A DNA stretch of 62,970 nt, filler included, from Chrysochromulina tobinii (lineage: Eukaryota): assembly GCA_001275005.1 (NCBI GenBank). It is 7 parts of 7 records of this genome, joined end to end, with 100 filler letters (N's around TTAATTAATTAA, not from the genome) between each part and the next. Parts side by side here need not be neighbours in the genome. Positions count along the whole stretch, not along the records: positions 33,647 to 40,269 come from JWZX01000724.1; 6 more parts are not named here. One strand, written 5' to 3'. This document shows positions 8,423-60,794 of the stretch, in pieces; the stretch's first letter is position 1; each line of letters starts with the position of its first letter. A program made the position numbers and the translations under genes. The notes beneath the pieces were generated by a model. The model searched no databases, was not told the DNA's origin, and saw only the letters and a list, made by a program, of their open reading frames with translations.

Positions 8423-8522
8423 NNNNNNNNNNNNNNNNNNNNNNNNNNNNNNNNNNNNNNNNNNNNTTAATTAATTAANNNNNNNNNNNNNNNNNNNNNN
8501 NNNNNNNNNNNNNNNNNNNNNN
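8423..8522. other. Artificial contig spacer
   Basis: N-run + TTAATTAATTAA (stops in six frames) + N-run, 100 nt. Confidence 0.99.
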
Positions 8523-10400
8523 CCGTCGCGAGAGTGTGCGAGAGTGACGGACAAATTCCGGTGGCGGCGTTCCACGCCGTCGACCCCGACGGCCGCATCT
8601 GGAGCCCCCTTCAAACCGGTCCGGTTGAGCCATCGCGTGCCTCGAGCCTTCCATGAAACGCGGGGGGTCTCGTTCCGGTGGCGGCTTCACTTTCCGACGA
8701 AACGAGGAGACCCTGCGTCTTTATAATGTGACTTGCACCCGCACCCGGACAGCGGAAACCGCGGACGCCACCAACGGACGCCTCCCATGCAGCCGGGCGG
8801 ATCGGCGGCGGGCGCAGGCCTGCGGCGCACGCCGCAGCCGCGCCGGCATCGGTGCGAGGCAGCAGCGTCTGTGGGTTACGCACACGCACCAGGCGGGGAG
8901 GCAACGATGGCGGGGCGCGGCGCGTGGAGACACGAAATGGCGGGGCGCGGCGCGTGGAGACAATCGCGCCATCGTCGCCTCCCCCGGTTCTGCTCGTACG
9001 CCGTCACCCACATCGCCTTGCAATGCGCCGACGCTTCCTGTTGCTACCGTGCTCGTCGGGGCGGCGTTGGAGACGCCGGCGACATCGAACCTGCGTGCGC
9101 CGACGCGCCCGATGGCGCGCGTCCCCCGTGGGGAACGCAAAGACGCACTCGACACCGTCGCATGACGACGGTGTCGAGCACAAGTGGTGGCTTCCATCGC
9201 CGCCGCCGCCGCCGCCGCCGCCTCTTCCGTGGGCGTCACGCCGCAGGCCGAGGCACCATCTTCGGCGCCGGTTGCGCCGCGCAACGCGCTGCGTCGGCGC
9301 CTTCGCCGCCGCACCTGCACAGCACGCGCGCGCACTCAGCGCCATCGATTCGTGCTGCGGGCACGAGCTGGCCAGAGCTTGAGAGTCCGAGCGCAGCTCC
9401 TCCGTAGAGCGCGCGCGTCAAAACGCACGGCGAAAGGCGCGGGCAGGTCGATGGCGAATGGAGAGATGGTTGGGAGCAGCGCCGTCCGCCGACGCGCCTG
9501 GAGCCGGCCGCAGCGGGGCGCGGAGGCGCGCATCGCGCAAAAGCAAAAAGGTTGGAGGACGGAGCACGAATTAAAGGGGGTCCGAGCCAGTACCCTGAAA
9601 GGCTGCTGCGCTCGCCTTTTTCAGGGTCCCCAGGATAAACGCTTTTCCTATCGCGGAAGAAGAGAGGCAAAACTTGTGAATATTGATGACAATCACAATT
9701 CGGCCAAAGGAACATGTCTGCACTATGGCTCGTGCCTCTGTCTGATTGCCTCTCTGACTGCCCACGTCAAGGTGCGCGATCACAGAGCTATACAAAGGGT
9801 AAATCCACGCGGCGTACTTCGTCCCATCGCCCATCGATCGGACACGCGGCTCGCGGGACGAAGTGTACGGCGCGTCCCATCCATTGGTCCCATCGCCCAT
9901 CGATGTCGCATGTCCGATGTCGCGTGTGTGTAATTATAAATCGCGGACAATACCGCGGACAACTTGGATCGCGGAGTGACTCGCGCGGTCGACCATGCAC
10001 AGAAAGCACGCTCCAGCGTGGTCAGCTCCAGCAAGAGCACAGACCACGCGACCATCAGGTACAGGGCGAGGATTCCGAAGAGCCGATGGGCGAACCATAC
10101 GCCCCACGCCCACTCTGCTTGCGTCACCGGTGCGAGTACACAGCAATCCGCGGCAGCGCAAGCCACCATCGTGCCATTCTCCATGTTTGGGCTCTCTTGT
10201 TAATTAACAGTGAAACAGGACACAGTGAAGACCAGCTACCAAATCTCAGATACGCGCTGGGGAGCGTTAAGCGGGTAAAGGTTAGAGCAACCGGTGATCT
10301 GCGAGCCCACCCGCTCCATGTTTCGTCTTACAAGCAAAGTCTGTGAAATGTCGCATGCGCGGGCGGTCGCGAATCAAAACGATTGTGTGCTTGCTTTTTG

Positions 10401-10923
10401 TCAACCACTGAGTTCAAAATCAGGTGGTGGGGATAGTGTGTGAATCCAGAAAGACTCCCCTACCCCTTTGCGCTTTGGTCAACCACTGAGTTCAAACAAG
10501 GGAGTTCAAAATCAGGTGGTGGGGATAGTGTGTGAATCCAGAAAGAATACCCTCCCCTCCCCTATACCCCTTTGGGTCAACCACTGAGTTCAAAATCAGG
10601 TGGTGGGGATAGTGTGTGAATCCAGAAAGAATACCCTCCCCTACCCCTTTGGGTCAAGTGGACCACATACTAGAACCGAAATCCCGGGCCAATTAGAGGC
10701 TCAGCCAATAGGTACTAACGTTGGCTCGCCCGGGCGACTCTCACCCCGGGACCATAGTTTTACCCAAGGGGGTAGGGGAGGGATTAATATCTGGATTTGC
10801 ACCCCTTCCTCATACCCTGATTACAAACTGAGTGATTTACCCAAGGGGTAGGGGTAAGGGGAGGGATTAATATCTGGATGTGCACCTCCCACTTCCTCAT
10901 ACCCTGATTACAAACTGAGTGAT
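10401..10923. repeat. Three direct ~80-bp units facing two diverged inverted units across a ~100-bp spacer
   Basis: Unit TCAACCACTGAGTTCAAAATCAGGTGGTGGGGATAGTGTGTGAATCCAGAAAG...CCCCTACCCCTTTG at about 10401, 10479 and 10577; reverse-complement-like units at about 10759 and 10836. Confidence 0.88.
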
Positions 10924-11084
10924 ACACGGGCCCCGCTGTGAAGACATGCCCAAGACGACGCACCCCCCCCGCCCGGGCCCACGGGACCGCTTACGGGTCC
11001 CGCAGGGGGGAAACGCCTCAGCCCCCGCTTACGCATACCCGTCATCACACGCAGCATCGCATGTGCATGCTCTTGACTTCCCCA

Positions 11085-11191
11085 CCTGCATGCAAGTGCT
11101 CATCACGACGCCAACGCGATGCTGGACATGCCCTCGACTCCCCCTGCATGCAAGTGCTCACCACGACGCCAATGCGATGCTGGGCATGCCC
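11085..11191 (+). repeat. Two tandem 58-nt-period copies containing the intron cassette core GCATGCAAGTGCTCA(C/T)CACG
   Basis: 11085-11133 and 11143-11191 are near-identical; the core matches the 3' cassettes of the introns at 11611-11700 and 35750-35812. Confidence 0.85.
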
Positions 11192-11342
11192 GATGTAGCC
11201 GCGCCCCGTACGCCACACAGTGCGCGAAAACAGGTCCCAGCCGCAGCTGACCGTCAATCGGGCTACAGGTACAGCTGGACAGCTGTACCGCTACGCAGAC
11301 CCTCAGTCCGTCAGCACCACGGCGCGAGCGGCAGGTAGCCCG

Positions 11343-12828
11343 TCAGCACCACGGCGCGAGCGGCAGGTCGAGCGGCGGCCGCAGGTTGTCGCTGGCGACG
11401 TTGACGTCGATATAGTGCGGCCGCAAGGTGTACGCGTTGACGCTAGGCTGCGGACTCCACTCGAAGGCGCGCACGGTGAAGGTTGAGTACGGCGCGAAGA
11501 GAAACTCGTCCTCGCCGTGCACGGTGCCCATCAGTGCGGTCGATGAAGTTGACGTGGACGCAGCGGCGGTTCGGGGGCAGCGCGCCATCGAGATGGAAGC
11601 GCCAGAGCACCTGTGGGGAGAGGAAGGGGAGGACGCCGTGGTTAGCACTTGCATGCTCGATCTAGGTGGAAGCGCCATCAAGGTGGAAGCGCCATCGCAC
11701 CGGCTCCTGAAAGGGCGGCGACTGCGAGGCGGTCGCGGGCGGCAGCCGCATCAGGAATGTGTGGATCGAGACGTCCTGCTCCACGCTCGTCGCGATGAAC
11801 ATCGGGGCGCGGTACGCCTTGCCCACGGCGAAGAAGCTCTGGAAGCAGCGTGGCATGGCGCCGCCGCGGTACAGGACGTGCTCGCTCGGCCACGGGACGG
11901 GGATGCCGCCCCGGCGCGCGACGCAAAAGGTGTTGATGGCGTGGGTGCAGGTGGCGGCGTGGTCGATGGTGTCCGCGCCGTCTTCGCGTAATGCCTGGTT
12001 GAGCAGCGAGCAGAACTCGCGCCCGCGCAACGTCTCCGCCGACGTCCACAGCCGCACCGCGATGTACATGATCTGATCGGGTCGGAGGATCTCATCGACG
12101 CCGCCCTCGCCGGCCTGCAGGGCCGCCCTGAGGGCGTTGGTGCGCAGCGTCTGGAAGAATCCGACGGCCTCGGAGCGGTCGATGCCCGCGCGCTGGGCGT
12201 GTGCGAGGATGAGGCTGTGCACGGCCGCCTCGAGCTGGAAGCTGCGGGGGGATGCCGAAGGCAAGCGCACGGGCGCACGAGCAGACACACGCGCGCACGA
12301 ATAAGTTACATAGCGCCGCGATCCTAATTAGGGAGCAGGCACGCACGAGCACGAGCATTCTTCTTCTGCGCTCGGGCAATCAGTAGCAATCAGTGGCGCT
12401 CAGTGGCGCTCAGTGGTCATCGGTGCGTACAGCTGGTCGGGTCTGCGCTCGGGCTTGTTGTAGCTCTCCATGAAGCGGGACGTTGCCAGTGACGTTGGTG
12501 GGGGCGTTGGTGTGAACGGGGAAGGTGGTGGGACAGGGCAGGAGATGGCGAGGCTCGCAGCGATAGCTGCAGCAAGCTGAGCGTCTTCTGCCTCATGCTG
12601 CGCATCTGCCGCCGCCTTTGCCGCCGCCGCCTTGTCGGCCGCCACCTTCGTGGCCGCCGCCTTGTCGGCCACCGCCTTGTCGGCCGCCGCCTTGTCGGCC
12701 GCCGCCTTGTCGGCCGCCGCCTTGTCGGCCGCCACCTTCGCGGCCCCGGTCTTGTCCCACCTGTTTCGAAGCGCACGGGGAACGCACGCTGTTGGCGCTG
12801 AGCAGTGGCGCCCATCACGGCGCGTCAT
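11343..12828 (-). CDS. Mono-ADP-ribosyltransferase (R-S-E/ARTC clade) with an upstream ubiquitin-interacting motif; 5' end unresolved, one +1 frameshift near 11528
   Basis: Motifs [43 protein letters not shown]-like [13 protein letters not shown] after (KAAAD)n; introns 12242-12430 and 11611-11700 join the frames. Confidence 0.8.
11611..11700 (-). other. Spliceosomal intron, exon-duplication plus cassette B type
   Basis: GTGCGA...CCCCACAG; its first 29 nt match the downstream exon start at 25/29; removal gives [28 protein letters not shown]. Confidence 0.85.
12242..12430 (-). other. Spliceosomal intron with internal (CCACTGAGCG/CTGATTGC) repeats
   Basis: GTACGC...CCCCCCGCAG; removal gives [12 protein letters not shown] in frame. 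Confidence 0.75.
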
Positions 12829-19184: not shown

Positions 19185-22100
19185 TCACGCGCTCCAGTGT
19201 TGCTCGGGCAGCTCGCACGGGACGACCTCGTGCAGGCGACGCTGCGAGAGCTGTGGCACAGTCGCCTTGACACGGCCTGGGTTGCCCGCAAGCGCGCCGA
19301 CGAGGTCGTGCGATGCGAGGCGCTGCACGAAATCCTGTGCGTTCGCGGCGCCCTTGATCTCGTCGAGCTGGAGTGGGCGCGGTGAGAGGCGGCAGATGAG
19401 TCGCGCCGTGTTGTGCTTCGAGAGCGGTTTCATCTCGAGAACTTTCTCGGCGCCGCCCTGCAGCGGCCGATTGACTGGATCGACGGCCGTGAGTAGCGTG
19501 CGCACGCGCGGGAAGCTGAGAAGCAGCTCAAGCAACTCGGCAAAGCCCGCTGCCTCCGCGAGGTCGGCGCTCACGCCGTCGAGCACGAGGAGGCAGTGCA
19601 GCCCGTGCAGCGGTAAGACGGCCGCCCGCGGCAGCGCGAGGTCCTCGTCGGCAAAGTGCGGGTCGGTCGAGCCCGCAGCGCCGGTGCTGCTGGCTGTGGC
19701 GGTTACGGCGCGCGCGGGTGGCTCCTCCCTCGGGGCGATGGTGGCGACGGCGGCGGCGACGACCGATCGCCCAACTTGCACCCGCAGCCGGCCAGCGAGC
19801 TCGGGGGCGTCCCGCGTGCCCGCACAGTCGACATACACGACGCCATCGGAGAAGTGATGGCGCTGCGCCAGGTAGTTGAGCGCCGCGACGGCGACGGCCG
19901 TCTTACCCACCCCAGCGGGCCCGGTGACGGAGACGAGGCGACGGTCGAGCACACCGGTGATCACGCGGTACGTCTCGACGTTTCTGCCGATGAAGGCCTC
20001 CGCAGTCGCGGGCAGCGGCTGCTGGTGTTGCGAGCCCTTAGGATACGGCGGATCCCACTTTTCGACGGGCAGGAGGTTGGGGAAGGGCACGGCGTTGTGG
20101 TCACCGGCGCCAAAGAGCAGGAACTTATCCCCCTCGATGTGTGCAGACGGTACGTTGGGCGCGTTGACCACGGCCTGCACGCCGATCTCGAAGGCCGCGC
20201 GGATGGACTGGCCGACAGCGAGAGCAAGATAAAAGGCGCGCGTGAACGCGTGTGCAGCGAGGTCCGAGACGCGCGTCGTCAGGCGCACGGCGATGACATG
20301 CGGCACGCCTGCCTCTACAAAGGCCTGTGCAGCAGCCTCCGAGAAGCACGCCGAGACGAAGACGAAGCGGAGCGAGGCGATGCCGCCCGCCTGCAGCAGC
20401 TTCTTGAGCGCGGGCACACGCACGAAGTGCGCATTCCCTCGCCCATCCTCCATCGAGAGGTAGTGTGGATCGCCGTGGCCCGAGTAGTGCAGTCCGCAAC
20501 ACTGGCCGAGCGTCACGAGGGTACGCAGCCGATCGGTCGTCGCGTACTCGAAGCGCACCTTGAGATTGCGCCGCGCCTCGCGCATGGAGTCGCAGATGAG
20601 CTCGCGCTCCTTGTCGAGATCGAGCATGTCCATCGGCACCACCTGCCCGCTTGGGTCTTGGCATACGAGTGACGCCGAGAAGAGCACTCCGAGCACAGGC
20701 ACCTGGCCGCCGCCGGAGCCACCGGCACCGCTTGCGGGGGCGCCCAGACGCATTTCGCCCCCCCACGAGTGCCCCTCGCCCACCCCGCCAGTGGGCCTTG
20801 CGCGCCCGCCGCCACCGCCGCTCGCCGAGCTCGTGGGTGGCGCGTCGGCGCCCAGATGTGAGTGGTCAAGACTCGAGAGGCGCAGCTCGCGGTTCTTGGC
20901 GAGGCGCTCCTGCAGGCGCGCCGCGTCCTGTGCAGCGAAGAAGCCGCCGTCTACCTGAAGCTCACACAGCGAGGTGGTCGAGAGCACGGCGATCAGCAGG
21001 TCTTTCGACTTGGAGCCCGCATGCATCGCGGCCGGTAGGTTGCTGAAAAGCCCAGGCAGAGCGCGGATAGCCTCGACGGGCGGCAGCGCGCCACGCAGCC
21101 CGTTGACGACCGTGAGGCCTGCGACGAAGGCATTATCGAGTAGGGAGAGCTCGAACAAACTAGTCAGGGATGAGACGAGCTTGCTCACGTGATCGATGAC
21201 GCCGACGGTCAGCTGGTTGCCCGCGAGGTCGAGCGAGCGCAGCACGCACCCTCCCGACTTGCCGCCAAGGCAGAGGCTCTCGAGCAGCTGCTGCGCGCCC
21301 GCGTCCGCGAGCCGATTGTATCGCAAGTTGAGCGCCAGCAGCCCACAGCGAGGCGAGCCCGAGGGGCCGCCCTGTAGCCACTCGCAGAGGGGGGCGAGGT
21401 CGGGGCCGCGCAGCGTACTGCGCGCGAGCGAGAGGGTGTGCAGTGCGGCCGGCCGCGCCTTGGCAAGCAGGCGCACGCCGTGGCGCGAGACGGCGTCCGC
21501 TTCGAGATGGAGGGAGTGGATCGAGCGCGGGAGTTCCTTTGGCAAGAAAGCGAGTGGAGGGCCCACCTCCTCGGGGCCGAGGTGCATGCTCTGCGCGTGA
21601 GGTGCATGCTCTGCCCGCCCCAGGGGCGAGGCTCCGGCGGCGGAAAGGATGCCCGCCACCGGGACGGCTATCGGCGGACGGCCGGCGCCGGCGCTACCGC
21701 CGCCGAGGCCGCCACCACCGCTCGTGCCGCCCCGTGCCAGCTCCAGCTCCAGCACCCCCCACGTCTCCAGCACCCCCCTTCACAGCTCCAGCACCCCCCT
21801 TCACAGCTCCAGCAACCCCCACGCCGCCGCCAGCAGCGCCAGCAGCGGCCGCATCCACAGCGCCGCCCAGGCCGCCGCCGGTGGATGCGTCGTGATTGCC
21901 GACGAATGTGAGCGTGTGGATCTGCTCGAAGCGGCCCAGGGCTGTCACCAGTTGGGCACAAAAGGCCTCCGAGAACTCGCAGCTCTCGAACCGGAGGCTC
22001 ACGAGCTGCGGGTGGTCGTTCGTGAGCCGGCGGAGGGCCGCGCTCAGCTTGAATGCATGCAGCTGCCGGTCACGCAGCACGATCGTGTGTGCCGTCGGCG

Positions 22101-34086: not shown

Positions 34087-35960
34087 ATGGCACACGACCC
34101 GAGCCGGGCGCGTCCGACGACGAGGTGTTCAAGGATGATGGTGGGCATGTCCCTCGTGTTTGCGATCTCGGCATCGGAGGCGCCGTGCGTGGCGGTCACC
34201 TTCAACCGCTCCACGGAGAGCGTCGATAGCCTGGCGGCGATCGAGCCACAGCACGTGCGAGCGCTCGACGGCACGGCCGCTGCGGGGGCGTGCGCTGCCG
34301 ACACGTCGGCCGGCCACTACGCCGCGGGCGGCGATTGCTTCGACCTAGGCATCGGCGACGCATCGAGCCGCTGGAGGCCGTTGGCATTCATGCCACGCGA
34401 TCTGCGCGCGCCGCATCCGGATGCGCTCAGCCGTGGGCTGCGCCTTCAGGCGGCGCTCGACGAGCTCCAGCATCGCGGCCCGTGTGCAGCTCGGCCCACG
34501 TACACGGTCGCCGAGCTGCCGATGATTGGCACCTGCGCGACCATCGAGTATGCGATGCTCGCCCTGGCGACCGCGGCGAGCAGCGGCTCGCGGCTCATTC
34601 TCGGCCGCCAGTCCACGCCGGTCTGGACGTCCCACTGGCTCTGCGGGGCGGAGCGCTCGTTGGGATGTTACTTCAACGTCTCGGCCGCGTGCTGTCCAGA
34701 TGATGCGAGCTTCAGCGCGTCTTCGAGGGTGGAGGGGGCGGGCGACGCGGCCATGGCCAAGATGCTTCAGCTCAAGGCCGCCGCGCGCGGGCGCAAGCTC
34801 AACCTCAAGGAGAAGATGATGCTGACCAAGCTGAGCAAGGCGGGGCGCGCCGACGCGATGACGTCCAGCCGTGTCGACGAGAAGATGAAACGGCGCCTTC
34901 TCAAGGAGAAGACGGTGCGTGAGAGCGGGCGTGGCAAGCTCGGGCGGCAAGGGGTGCCGCCACGTAGTCGCGAGTGTCTCTGATTGCATGCTGATTGCCT
35001 CCCTCATCAGGTTCGACCGCCACGTAGTCGCGAGCTCGGCACGCTCGAGGGGCACAAGGCTGTCGTGGGCAGCTCGCGCGCGCTTACGCTGGGGGGCTCG
35101 CTCGCCGAGCACAATGAGTATGGAACCCTGTGGGTGAGTGGGCAGCTGGTGCATGGGCTCTTTGAGCAGATGCGGCCTGTCTCTGATTGCATGCTAATTG
35201 CCTCCCTCATCAGGTGAGTGGGCAGCTGGTGCATTGGCTCTTTGAGCAGATGCGGCCTGGCACGCGCGCCCAACTCGACGCCCGACGCGCCGACGTCTTC
35301 CCGCGCGCCGTCGAGTCGGCTGGGTACCGGCACTACCCCGGCACGGCGGGCGGCGCACGCGGCCTCACAATCGGGATGCATGTGCGCCGCGGCGACTCGT
35401 GCGCGCTCGGATCGCGCTTCTGCCCGCGCAACAAGACGGCGGCCTACTTTGAGATGGCGGCGAGATTGCGAGCGCAGTACCCCGCGATGCAACGGCTCGT
35501 GGTCGCGACGGACGATGAGGAGGCGGCCGCGCTCTGTGCGTCACGCGTGCTTGGGTTTGAGTGCATCACGCGAACGATGGATCGGACCCGATTCCAATCG
35601 CAGACCTCGATTGAACGGCGGGTGGTCAAGCACGCTAATGGGCTCCTCTCGGGCGCCACAGTCACGCTCGACGCCCTCGCCGACCTCGAGATGCTCGCCG
35701 ACTGCGACGCGCACGTGCTCGTGTTTCGCTCGGCTCTCTCCCGTCTTGCGTACGCTCTGCAGCATGCCCGCAGCATGCAAGTGCTCACCACGGCGCCCTC
35801 CCCTCCCCACAGGTACGCTCTGTCCACGGCTCGCAAGGGGCGCTTCACGCCGCTCATCTCGGTGCAGTGGCCGTGGGGAGGGATGCCCGGGCCGTCGAGC
35901 TTGGGAGCGGCGCGACCAGCGGCGGCGAAGGTGTATCAAACCTTGAAAGTGGCGATGTGA
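34087..35960 (+). CDS. Alpha-1,6-fucosyltransferase-like (GT23, FUT8/NodZ-related), 4 exons
   Basis: GMHVRRGDSC, LVVATDD and LADLEMLADCD...S..SRLAY motifs; introns 34954-35010, 35134-35213 and 35750-35812 give one continuous frame. Confidence 0.85.
34954..35010 (+). other. Spliceosomal intron, exon-duplication plus cassette A type
   Basis: GTG + an exact 18-nt copy of downstream exon sequence (34957-34974 = 35017-35034) + 36-nt TGTCTCTGATTGCATGCTGATTGCCTCCCTCATCAG; contains an in-frame stop. Confidence 0.88.
35134..35213 (+). other. Spliceosomal intron, exon-duplication plus cassette A type
   Basis: First 46 nt match the downstream exon start at 45/46, then cassette A (35/36 identical to the previous copy); removal restores the frame. 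Confidence 0.9.
35750..35812 (+). other. Spliceosomal intron, exon-duplication plus cassette B type
   Basis: GTACGCTCTG (identical to 35813-35822) ... GCATGCAAGTGCTCACCACGGCGCCCTCCCCTCCCCACAG; removal gives RLAYALST. Confidence 0.82.
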
Positions 35961-36199
35961 CCCAGAGAGAGAGACGCCGTCCTCGGAAGAGACCGGCTTG
36001 CACCGCAGCGGATGCGGGACGGAATCAATTCTCGAAGGCTGCGTCAGGAGAACAAACCCCTTTGAAAGAACACAGGACGCTTGTCTCTGTCCGGGGTCAG
36101 CTACCGTTACGACAAACTTGGAAATCAAACTTGAAACTGTGTTCAAGTTCCGCGCGGACCCCTCTCAAGTCGCGGTCGAACCGCGCGCGAGAGGGCGTG

Positions 36200-37880
36200 A
36201 TGAAGTTCATGTATCGTACGTGCGCGCAAAGACTCCTCCTCCTCTACCTCTTGCCCATGCTGGCAAGCGCTTGCACGACGCTCGTTGCGGGGCGCGGGGC
36301 CACCGTAGACGGCAGCGTGCTCACCTCGCATTCAAACGATGGCGATGGCACCACGATCGGAAACTTGCAGATCGTCGAGGCGGCGAACTGGTCGCTCCCC
36401 CAAACGCGGCCAGTCTCCGGCGGCAGCGTGCCGCAGGTTGCGCACACATACGCGTACTTCACCAAGGTGGGCGGTTACGCCTCCATCAACGAGCACCAGG
36501 TCGGCCTCGCCGAGTCAACATGCAACGCAGTGTTCTTTGGCCAGAGGGAGAAGGCCGTGCTCAACATCGTCGATCTGAGTGAACTCGGCTTGGAGCGCGC
36601 GAACACGTCGCGCGCCGCCGTGGCAATAATGGGCGCGCTGGCCGAAGCTCACGGCTACTACGACGCGGGCGAATCCCTATTTGTAGTCGACCCGGCGGAG
36701 GCCTTCATCTTCCACGTGCTGCCCGATCCATCGGGCACCTCGGCAGTTTGGGTTGCGCAGCGCGTGCCCGATTCGCACGTGGGTGTCGTGGCGAACGCGT
36801 TCACGGTGCGCGTGGTCGACCTGAACGACTCCCACGCCTTCCTGTACAGCAAAACGATGGTCGACGTGGCGCTTGCGACCGGCCGTTGGAGGCGCGATCT
36901 GCCCTTCGACTTCACACGAATCTTCTCTGGACCGGAGCTTGGGCACAAGTACGCGTCTGGTCGACGTATGTGGGCCGCCTTTCGCGCTCTCGCGCCCGCA
37001 GCGTCGGTGAGCCTCTCACCCACATACACCGAGTACGTCTCAGCCTCGCACTACCCAGCCACGCTGCCCGCGACGAACGTGAGCGCCGGCATGCTGCGCG
37101 CTACTATGCGGAACTATTACGCGGGGACGCCGTACGACATGAGCGTGGGCATGGCAGCCGGTGCGGCCGGCTCCCCGATCCGCGCATTGCCTCTGAGTGC
37201 CTCTCCTAGGCACTGATCGACGCTGATGGCCTCGGAGCGCAGGTGCGTTTGGCTCCCCCATCCGCTGGAGTACCGGTACCGGTACGACGGGCCACTCTGA
37301 GATCACGGGCAACTTTGAGCGCTCGATCGCTACTCCGCGCACCATTGTATCGTACGTGCTCGTCGTGCGCAGCTGGCTGCCCGCGCCCGTTGGGGGCGTC
37401 GCTTGGTACTCGTTCCACGGGGCCCTCACCTCGGTGTATGTGCCGCTGCTCACGCTGATGCTGGGCGCAAAGGTCGCTCTGGCGCCCAGTCTGACACAAA
37501 ATGGCGGCGCAGTGGATCGTGGGGTGGGCGCGTGGCAGGCGGCTCATTTCGTCTTCGCCGCCTCGCAGATCGACTTTGGCGGTGCGTTGCCGCTCGTGCA
37601 GCAGGCGCAGCAGCAGTGGGAAGATGCCGCCGGCGAGGCGCTCGTAGCCAATGCCGTTGCCGACTTCCAGGCGGGTGCAGAGACAGAAAATGTGCTCGCC
37701 AAGCGCTGCAACGAGCATGCCACTGCCGCAGTGGCGGCGTGGTGGGACCTTTCAGATGCCTTGCTCAGCCGCATCTCGCCGCCCGCACTCCACTACCCGA
37801 CATGGTGGCTCCAGGCACCGTCGGTCAACTACACCAACGGCCCGCCAGTCGCACCAGATGTGCCGCCACCGCCACACTGA
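36200..37880 (+). CDS. Secreted peptidase family C69 (dipeptidase A/secernin-like, Ntn hydrolase), 2 exons
   Basis: Signal peptide then nucleophile CTTLVAGRGATVDGS; INEHQVGLAEST, LERANTSR, WVAQRVPD, ANAF; spliced AAGAFGSPIR...ERSI. Confidence 0.92.
37161..37242 (+). other. Spliceosomal intron, exon-duplication plus a third cassette type
   Basis: GTGCGG...GAGCGCAG; first 23 nt match the downstream exon start at 19/23; removal restores the C69 frame. Confidence 0.85.
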
Positions 37881-39007: not shown

Positions 39008-40181
39008 CAGAGGGGTGGGTTTAACATTGAGACACTTTTTTGCGTTAAGTATCAAGTGTTGAGACACCAAAACAGGTGTTGAGACACCAAGTGTTGAGAC
39101 AGGAAAACAGGTGTTGAGACAGGGTTTGAGACAGGTGTAGATGTTGCCGCCGTCAACATCTACAGTTCAAACGCCGAATCGGCGTCAAAAATAACGGTCG
39201 TCAAGTGCGGATATTCTTCGAATTCATATCCCCTCAACAATCTCGGACAATTTTTCAATTACGCTTTATTTGGGTCCCACGAAGGTCGAAGCGCGGTCTT
39301 GGATGGACTGCCGGCCTCTCTCTGAAGTTGCATCGTCGCGGCTCGTGTGGGACCTACAAGATCTTCTATGCAGAAGAGGAGACGGAGGAGATGGTGCTCG
39401 AGCAGTGGGAGGACCTGAAGGCGGAGATCAAAGTGCCGACGCTGCGCACGCTCAGCTTTCATCAGCTGTGGGCGAACATGCTCGTACAGTACGCGGACGA
39501 GTATGCGCTGGTGCTGCGCCTCGTTGTCATTTCGCTGCTCATCCCCGCTGACACATCGGAGTGCGAGCGCATCTTCTCGCTCATGAACGACCTCAAGACT
39601 GCCGAGCGGAACTCGATGGGCCAGCAGAACCTCAAGAACCTGATGCTGTGGCACATCATGGGCTACAAGACGGACATGGAGGGCAAAAAGGTCAAGATGC
39701 CGTGTTGTGACGTGCCGGTGATGGCCATCCTCAAGGAGTTCCGCTCGATGGCATTTGAGAATGGCGGCATGCTCGGCCGCAAGGCCCACCCCGGTCGGCG
39801 GCAGTGCCAAAGTACGAGTATGAGAAGCACCGGGCACCAGTGAAGGCGGCCACCTCGGCCGCCTCCTCTGCCGCAGAAGAATGAGGAATGAGGTTCTGGT
39901 AGAGGAACGTGACATGGAGAGTGCGGGCAGGCATGACATGGAGGGCGGCGGGCGGGCGCGTCGCGACTCACGAGTCGGCAACGCATGGCGAGTCGAGACT
40001 CGAGAGTCGCTGTAGAGCCGTACCGGGCGTGTTTTCGAGGTGTTGAGACGGGCTGAAGAGGTGTTGAGACAGGCTGTCTCAACAGCTCCTCAAACAGGTG
40101 TTGAGACAGGCTAACACTTCCTGAGCTTAAGTGTTAATACAAACGTCTCAACAGCGTCTCAACGTTAAACCCACCCCTCTG
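39008..40181 (+). mobile_element. Internally deleted (non-autonomous) hAT DNA transposon
   Basis: TIR CAGAGGGGTGGGTTTAAC(A/G)TTGAGAC at both ends; perfect 8-bp TSD TTGGACTC (39000-39007, 40182-40189); subterminal GTGTTGAGACA repeats. Confidence 0.95.
39365..39843 (+). pseudogene. hAT transposase C-terminal dimerisation-domain remnant
   Basis: LLIPADTSECERIFSLMNDLKTAERNSM...LKNLM matches the hAT P.sS..cER.FS...R..l pattern. Confidence 0.88.
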
Positions 40182-59230: not shown

Positions 59231-60794
59231 GGGATTGGGGTTTTTTTCTATACAAGAAAAGGCTCTTTTCTATACAAGATATCATTATATATCATTACAT
59301 ATCACGTTTCTATCATTGTGTATCATTATGTATCATTGTCGATATCATAATATATCATGTCCCTCGGCGACACATGATATAACGGTATATCATCTTTTTT
59401 TCTTCTGCTTTTAATATCATGTGCTATCATGTGCCATCTCATCTCACGTTCTTGATGATATAGCATATAGGGACCTGATAGTGATACCGACACATGATAT
59501 AATAATGATATATTATGATATAACGCCCAATTCGAGCCTCGACCTCCACGTCCCCGACCCTACATGATATCACATGATATCACATGATATCATGTCCCCC
59601 GACCACAGCCCAAGCCCCCACAACACAAACTTCGATATCACGAGATATCATGGCATATCATGAATCATGATACATCATGATATATGACATGATACACGAA
59701 TACGAAAACACAGATATGAGCACAAGATATCGATGATATGGAGATGATATATTGATGCTATGGAAATGGCGTGGGCCTTGCCTCATGGCAGCCTGGCTTC
59801 GTCGCATGCTCTGCGGCAGGCATGGGATATCAGTAGAATCTCATCTTACTTCTTCGGCGCATGGCGGACGCGCTTGGCAGCGGGGAGCGCCTCCGGAAGA
59901 GGCTCAGTCAGGCCCCGGTCAGCCACAAGAGGAAGAGGCTTTGTCTGCGTCAAGAGGATCCAGCTTGAGGAGGAATCCTCCGTGATCCGCTGCAAGGCGA
60001 ATCCATTCGACCTCGTATGTGAGTGCAAGGGCAGCCGAAAGATTGGCATTTGCGCTCACATCCTTGCAGTCACGCACTGCTGGGTCAAGGAAGGGAACCT
60101 AGACGAGCAGAGGCGGCTTGCCTTTTGCAATTTACGGCTCATGACCCAAGCCCTGACGACGAAGACGAAGAAGGGTGCGAAGTGGATGAAAGGCAAAGGC
60201 GCGACAAAAATACTCCACTATCTGTACAAGGAGGTTCCCAAGGAGGTTGACAGCTCAGACGATGAGGAAGATGTGAGCTTCATCCCTCCCCTCAAGTGGT
60301 GAGAGATGTCTCTACGGGATTAGTGAACCACTCACGTTGACTGACATTACATGATAGAACTGATATGATATGATACTGATAGATATATAACGATATCATG
60401 ATATCATAGTCAAGGTAAAGATTGTTTGTCATCTCATATCCCAGGTCATGCCACTCCGGTATCATGTCCATATATCATTGATACCAAAACATGATACTGA
60501 CGCGGCATGATACGGGACATGATATTTTTTGGCGGTGTATCATAATTTTATTTTTTGTGATATCATGTTGGTATCATGTGTTCAAAACGAGCATCATATA
60601 TCATGGTATATCATGTCGTGCATTATGTATCATCGATATCATTGATATCATGTGTCGCCGAGGGACATGATATATTGTGATATCGACAATGATACACAAT
60701 GATACACAATGATAGAAACGTGATATGTAATGATATATAATGATATCTTGTATAGAAAAGAGCCTTTTCTTGTATAGAAAAAAAACCCAATCCC
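59231..60794 (+). mobile_element. Internally deleted Mutator-like (MULE) element with 150-bp TIRs
   Basis: 59231-59380 is the reverse complement of 60645-60794 with about 3 mismatches; G-rich termini; AT-rich subterminal GATATC/ATCATGAT motifs; internal SWIM finger; no TSD found. Confidence 0.88.
59760..60302 (+). pseudogene. MULE transposase C-terminal remnant with SWIM zinc finger
   Basis: CECKGSRKIGICAH fits CxC-x7-CxH; basic/acidic tail; no DDE core. Confidence 0.78.

Follow-up and report, generated by a model that had tools for sequence, protein, structure and literature searches.

The introns described here are recent gains at sites that are empty in related sequences. We tentatively propose that such new introns are built from a duplicate of the host exon and a copied piece of intron, and that an existing intron, probably as RNA, was copied with its 3' end leading into an exon opened by a staggered cut.

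The host gene and its three introns

The window (the whole 62,970-nt stretch of Chrysochromulina tobinii DNA that was analysed) contains six 100-nt gaps (N44, a 12-nt spacer and N44; positions 8423, 12965, 22786, 33547, 40270 and 57852), which mark it as a scaffold or as joined contigs, so that neighbours across gaps may not adjoin. The features of the main locus are listed below.

34135..35961, +, host gene, resembling a fucosyltransferase (GT23/FUT8-like, weak), with 4 exons and an uncertain start codon
34915..35010, +, intron 1, 96 nt, GT..AG (RNA joint in X1, X2 and X3)
34915..34956, +, former exon, intronised, inside intron 1 (comparison with sister proteins)
34957..34974, +, 18-nt duplicate of exon 35017-35034 (sequence match)
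34975..35010, +, cassette A copy 1, 34-nt family-wide core plus TG (36-mer match)
35011..35133, +, exon, 123 nt, between introns 1 and 2 (RNA joints)
35134..35213, +, intron 2, 80 nt, GT..AG (RNA joint in X2 and X3)
35134..35179, +, exon duplicate of 46 nt, matching 35214-35259 at the start of the downstream exon and supplying the GT donor
35178..35213, +, cassette A copy 2, CTAAT variant (36-mer match)
35750..35812, +, intron 3, 63 nt, 10-nt exon duplicate plus cassette B at 35773-35812 (sister-protein colinearity)

The only Pfam match of the host gene was FUT8_N_cat (E=0.053). Its Atlas clusters carry PF19745, and the top cluster is mostly of Haptophyta (phylum known for just 5 members). The organism, a GC-rich eukaryote, was accordingly treated as a haptophyte. 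The spliced product showed 95% amino-acid identity to continuous ORFs of 541-542 aa.

RNA-library contigs join 34914 to 35011 in 3/3 RNA runs and 35133 to 35214 in 2/3; neither joint was present in a contig set of unrecorded type that was compared alongside. At intron 3, RNA contigs end at 35749 and begin at 35813, the joint itself being absent among the matches listed, and removal of the intron restores colinearity with the sister proteins. An assembly artefact was ruled out by the RNA joints and because 6 other assemblies, which differ in their alleles, show this anatomy as well.

A sequence-only reading had described a 36-mer, at 34975-35010 and 35178-35213 and 35/36 identical, as the end of two consecutive introns and the trace of two insertions 123 nt apart. 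All of this was borne out: the 36-mer gave 2 matches in the window vs 0 in 100 shuffles, the segments spliced out (34915-35010 and 35134-35213) both end with it, and the intervening exon measures 123 nt. The further claim that the 5' half of each intron copies its own downstream exon stood for intron 2, in which 35134-35179 has 1 mismatch in 46 to 35214-35259 and overlaps cassette A copy 2 by 2 nt (TG). In intron 1 the copy spans just 18 nt (34957-34974 = 35017-35034); the first 42 nt once belonged to the coding sequence, and the sister proteins without the intron still show 12 extra residues there; most of this intron is intronised former exon. In allele L011, intron 2 consists of two tandem units. 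Cassettes A (34975-35010) and B (35773-35812) both contain a palindrome, TGCATGC or GCATGC, and are otherwise unrelated.

Four sister proteins (541-542 aa) are encoded by an ORF that is continuous across all three intron positions, on contigs that are presumably genomic, given their length (up to 28 kb). These long forms keep the 12 residues that the window places inside intron 1; since a retrocopy of spliced mRNA would be without them, intron 1 is a gain, and its loss or retrocopy in the sister was rejected. Among the 15 cluster members listed (of 58), 11 are 282 aa long and end within the cassette of intron 1. This cassette may have entered with a short duplicate (57-nt unit), the donor used lying 39 nt upstream; alternatively, a 60-nt duplicate was formed whose exon copy lost 36 nt. 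At the DNA level, presence and absence were seen between L015 and L021/L009 (77 nt, flanks 83-89% alike) and between L019 and L014/L010 (89 nt, about 96% alike).

Elsewhere in the window, clustered 60-90-nt direct repeats lie in intergenic sequence (10396-10640 and 10767-10925), and an ORF at 19188-21587 (-) matches CHAT and NACHT/AAA weakly. In the region of 39.0-40.1 kb, short repeats (39050-39110 and 40037-40110) show high depth and many differences, and an AT-rich region (59240-60760) has related repeats at both ends; both sets of repeats are possible transposon termini.

A dispersed intron end and its exon duplicates

Metagenome contigs were scanned for the cassette A core by exact 25-nt match. 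The 33 matches obtained, at 22 loci, fall in 8 genes of a haptophyte-like alga, one of them the window's gene, and the cassette is thus not restricted to one locus. Nor is its orientation random with respect to transcripts: 30 A and B cores lie on the anchor strand and 0 on the opposite strand in 11 loci, 11 of the cores being the anchors themselves and several loci sharing a gene. Orientation by ORF content gave no discrimination, both strands being open. The idea of a dispersed, co-oriented, non-coding sequence that makes introns with the other half taken from host exon is supported.

The mobile unit of about 36 nt that had been proposed was not upheld. When the 12 copies that lack an extra repeat unit are compared, they agree in just 3 letters 5' of the core, which leaves a family-wide core of 34 nt; the copied pieces are 34 to 82 nt long and can include flank specific to their donor. 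The anatomy is the same for cassette B and for plain repeat tracts. Introns of Emiliania are rich in 10-11-nt repeats. At the 3' side, 24/24 distinct A-core contexts continue as far as the same CAG/TAG, although the scan pattern had stopped 9 nt short of it; in 14 of them GT comes next. Loose contig ends pile up at AG+GT (47 contigs in X15 and 33 in X16). Read depth over A and B (2062 and 1920, vs about 8, in X15) shows many copies, not copy numbers. Local copying, also suggested from the sequence, is weak for the window pair, which shares 5 letters 5' of the core compared with at most 4 with other copies, and is better supported in other genes. The CTAAT copy was seen also with other flanks in one row of loose ends, and the variant may therefore have been inherited from a donor. 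Candidate branch points are CTGAT at -31 and CTRAT at -20, or CTCAT in the Scc3-type intron.

Cassette A was found at 0 loci and cassette B at 1 locus in the viral contigs scanned, and 0 A and 0 B in the prokaryote genomes scanned. Rfam gave 0 matches and no ribozyme domains on the window, no RT or transposase was found among its 19 long ORFs, and poly(A) was found at none of the sites seen. Folds of cassettes and introns were no better than those of shuffles (z 0.07-0.93); the ends of the A core show 5-bp complementarity only (z 0.93), and its 5' end is variable.

Independent sites were curated (21; 12 A and 9 B) after alleles, inner array units, locus L023 (truncated), two A-like copies that had diverged and the two B-like cores without an acceptor (11088 and 11146) had been set aside. 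The usual anatomy is X-insert-X, X being host exon of 10-46 nt that is duplicated at the site. The duplicate supplies the donor, sometimes the acceptor, and the insert is the 3' piece, or the whole, of another intron, ending at its AG. The flank duplication score was at least 12 at 14/21 curated sites, vs 3/300 permuted pairs and 113/1949 random window positions, and below 12 at 7/21. Single-unit introns (14) measure 63-96 nt (mean 80; lengths entered by hand), and the lengths of duplicate and insert are negatively correlated (rho -0.62, n=14), a relation that is partly built in. Duplicates diverge more than cassettes, a comparison that carries no weight since the scan required an exact core. 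Units of 49-56 nt form arrays of 2-3, whose copy number varies between alleles. Two further introns of the window were predicted.

11611..11700, -, putative cassette-B intron, 90 nt, with a 29-nt exon duplicate, in another gene (sequence only)
37161..37242, +, putative intron, 82 nt, in a peptidase C69 gene, with an exon duplicate of 23 nt and an interior that is neither A nor B (removal restores the frame)

Among named proteins, the peptidase has its nearest homologue in Prymnesium parvum (73%). The gene with the B intron (about 11340-12300, -), as read by eye, has LYRG, FIATS and EDEFL motifs, which we take to resemble an ADP-ribosyltransferase fold. Just downstream of a minus-strand gene and opposite to it, two B-like cores lie in tandem with no acceptor (11088-11200, +); these two, at 11088 and 11146, are possibly unselected copies.

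Some loci are more complex. L014:1792-1988, which is spliced as one piece, and L002:1070-1220 are introns with a second duplicate-plus-insert event, including an intronic copy of a spliced exon junction. L021:1170-1250 and L015:1488-1569 are of a mirror type, in which a duplicate of the upstream exon end appears to give the acceptor. L019:17-220 is a mosaic array of A units; the copies that flank them derive from three sources, namely the upstream exon, a site 500 nt downstream and the Scc3 exon.

Donor tracing and known systems

A cohesin Scc3 gene (identified by Pfam HEAT_SCC3-SA, E 4e-8) carries cassette A between two 36-nt exon copies. From the frame and an RNA-spliced copy, the donor of its intron would lie where the insert begins, and the acceptor where the second exon copy ends. 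In a gene unrelated to Scc3, L014:987-1068 (82 nt) is identical to the Scc3 intron at 78/82 positions; removal of exactly this segment was predicted from the frame, and then shown by one RNA contig (1/3 RNA runs, depth 4). Since its last 35 nt match the upstream exon of Scc3 at 33/35 positions, and its own at 14/35, Scc3 is the source, and an 82-nt spliced intron moved whole into an unrelated gene, together with Scc3 exon sequence. Longer 5' runs in common with these copies were found at a second site in the L014 gene (13 letters) and at locus L005 (20 letters).

At five 5' junctions, duplicate and donor overlap by 2, 6, 8, 0 and 3 nt (sum 19 vs 3.7 expected; P ~1e-5, or 0.002 without the dependent L005 case), the donors having been picked after inspection from a set that may be incompletely sampled. 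The Scc3-to-L014 junction was scored 0 by the script owing to an allele variant, and 4 nt by eye; the value of 0 was kept.

The intron-gain literature was compared through the sources cited here, which also include PMC4815162 and PMC4580454. Introners occur in many haptophyte genomes, with TSDs of 3-9 bp, and 4 bp in a Chrysochromulina family (Gozashti et al. 2022; PMC9860276); the TSD entries for the Prymnesium, Haptolina and Emiliania families are Y, N or ?, with no lengths, and the two A/B motifs were not found among the rows listed of Supplementary Tables 5 and 6 of that paper. Like introners, especially those of the Symbiodinium type (own 3' site, 5' site from the TSD; PMC9860276; 10.1101/2024.06.04.597373), the present introns are multi-copy and spliced; one splice site comes from the duplicated target, and haptophytes are among the hosts (PMC9860276). 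Unlike introners, they have a duplicate of variable length (10-46 nt, up to half the intron), no TIR and no fixed length, and their copies are alike over part of the intron only. Introner features in the broad sense are present (introns of unrelated genes, 8 in all, spliced out and recently gained). Similarity over the whole intron is absent, 34 of about 80 nt being common family-wide, with the exception of the one whole-intron copy. The cassette introns are introner-like, yet not of the short-TSD or TIR classes. About 72% of introner families are without an assigned mechanism, and these elements may therefore be among them (10.1101/2024.06.04.597373).

Intron transposition and fungal introner-like elements (PMC3443670; PMC8469720) resemble the present case in that introns are copied from introns, sense-only and without transposon hallmarks, with an RNA route proposed; those introns and elements insert seamlessly with no duplication, whereas the copies here are often 5'-truncated and completed by the exon duplicate. 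When introns are gained through DSB repair or tandem genomic duplication (PMC3443670; PMC11782384; PMC4974935), too, an exon duplicate supplies a splice site and direct repeats (4-30 bp reported) border the intron, but here the other site is given, repeatedly across genes, by a traceable shared insert from another intron. Retrohoming of linear group II introns (PMC3280974) shares a precise 3' junction, a truncated 5' junction with microhomology and a staggered cut in the 3' exon; it loses the overhang that is duplicated here, and neither a ribozyme nor an intron-encoded protein was found here (no Rfam match in the window). Replitron-1 and N1 of Chlamydomonas (PMC10288648) share a fixed dinucleotide end, a fuzzy flank-carrying end, a variable TSD and one orientation, but the present inserts are far shorter, make introns and show no terminal direct repeats, hairpin or transposase. 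No description of introns that are half long exon duplicate and half shared intron end was found in a literature search that had most subscription journals outside its reach.

Proposed copying into a staggered cut and its rivals

Insertion of non-LTR (TPRT) elements is defined by a fixed 3' end, variable 5' truncation and a variable TSD, and these traits were found here. All cases fit the X-insert-X arrangement, with the 3' end of the insert at or near an intron 3' end and a ragged 5' end with microhomology, which is the geometry of target-primed copying at a staggered cut. In the route we propose, the exon would be nicked or cut at x|GT, and the 3' end of an intron joined or primed there. Copying would halt at a variable point, and microhomology of 2-8 nt would join the copy to the overhang, whose presumed fill-in would give the duplicate. 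Selection would retain duplicates that start with GT/GC (or end with AG) in an intron of about 60-95 nt; units that are too short would survive through tandem expansion or, as in intron 1, through use of a cryptic donor further upstream. Every new intron would be a new template, and abundant 3' ends (A and B) would spread without a transposase of their own. Later unequal recombination and conversion between units would form the arrays.

RNA is slightly favoured over DNA template switching as the template because the AG end is invariant, the whole-intron move is exact, copies are sense-only and donors are of the same gene, and because of the apparent rate of gain. Sense orientation and the AG end are also expected from selection for splicing, and an AG that is kept but unused was found only in the Scc3 event and L018. 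In addition, inserts without terminal AG lie inside introns (L002 and L014:1792-1988), the L014b units end at an AG that lies internally in the donor of Scc3 type, and L019 includes mosaic units drawn from several sites; recombination at the DNA level therefore certainly acts. Further points against the proposal are the 7/21 sites with a duplicate score below 12, the two B-like cores (11088 and 11146) that run opposite to their nearest gene and lack an acceptor, the absence of an RT or transposase among the 19 long ORFs of the window, and the loss of the overhang in group II retrohoming (PMC3280974). The stronger form of the proposal, in which ordinary spliceosomal introns retro-copy without an element of their own, excised RNA being inserted 3' end first in transcribed DNA and the exon duplicate giving the missing splice site, is possible and rather more doubtful.

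Repair templated by DNA alone is a less likely explanation, yet it deserves serious weight. A staggered break or stalled fork would be filled in, and synthesis would switch by microhomology to nearby or abundant intron DNA, copy through the acceptor and switch back, orientation and AG end arising from selection alone. Such repair accounts for the 5'-junction microhomology, the varied templates (plain repeat tracts included), inserts like the neighbouring intron of the same gene (the L014 sites, the new intron of L019, and L004), the mosaic arrays with variants common to neighbouring units across alleles, and the inserts without AG; DSB repair with flanking direct repeats is, moreover, a proposed route of intron gain (PMC3443670, PMC11782384). 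It is weakened by the Scc3 insert, which ends at a seemingly unused AG, by the scarcity of such flanking repeats (113/1949 random positions, as above) and by the fact that a 1.6-kb CDS gained 3 introns while the proteins diverged by no more than 5% in amino acids; with random templates and ends, this would on a rough estimate require a very high raw rate. Movement of A and B as minimal non-autonomous elements, by an HUH (Replitron-like) transposase on single-stranded DNA, is improbable. The geometry of Replitron-1 is alike, even to the parental flank at the fuzzy end, and putative Replitron proteins are known from two haptophytes (PMC10288648). Against it, A, B and the repeat-tract inserts share no termini beyond the splice AG and show no terminal direct repeat and no hairpin above shuffles, Replitron-N1 requires about 52 bp at each end (PMC10288648), and no autonomous element was found among the 19 long ORFs of the window.

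The cassette might instead be no more than a long 3' splice consensus that selection or conversion maintains, in introns from plain tandem exon duplication. The core is indeed built of CTGAT-type units, common in these introns, and tandem duplication is a proven route of gain (PMC3443670); the cassette is missing from empty sites, however, and was therefore inserted, and it travels with donor-specific flanks, so that this account is very improbable. Hardly any likelihood is left for a classical DNA-transposon introner (MITE-like, moved by a DDE transposase): haptophyte genomes commonly contain introners, of which some have TSDs (PMC9860276), and the core has its 5-bp complementary ends, but duplications of 10-46 nt contrast with TSDs of 3-9 bp (PMC9860276), the 5' end is not fixed, the fold is not significant and no TIR of at least 6 nt was found.

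The origin of new spliceosomal introns is an open question, and gain by an exon duplicate and a copied intron piece would be a little-described route. It reshapes proteins too, 12 residues having been lost at intron 1. Each event records itself, since both cut positions can be read from the duplicate and the donor from captured flanks, and since alleles that have the intron coexist with alleles that lack it; RNA and DNA templating can therefore be tested directly in one genome. Screens that require end-to-end similarity of introns would undercount this route. If introns are indeed retro-copied from RNA, this haptophyte would harbour an ongoing, traceable and transposase-free intron factory that screens for whole-intron similarity would miss.
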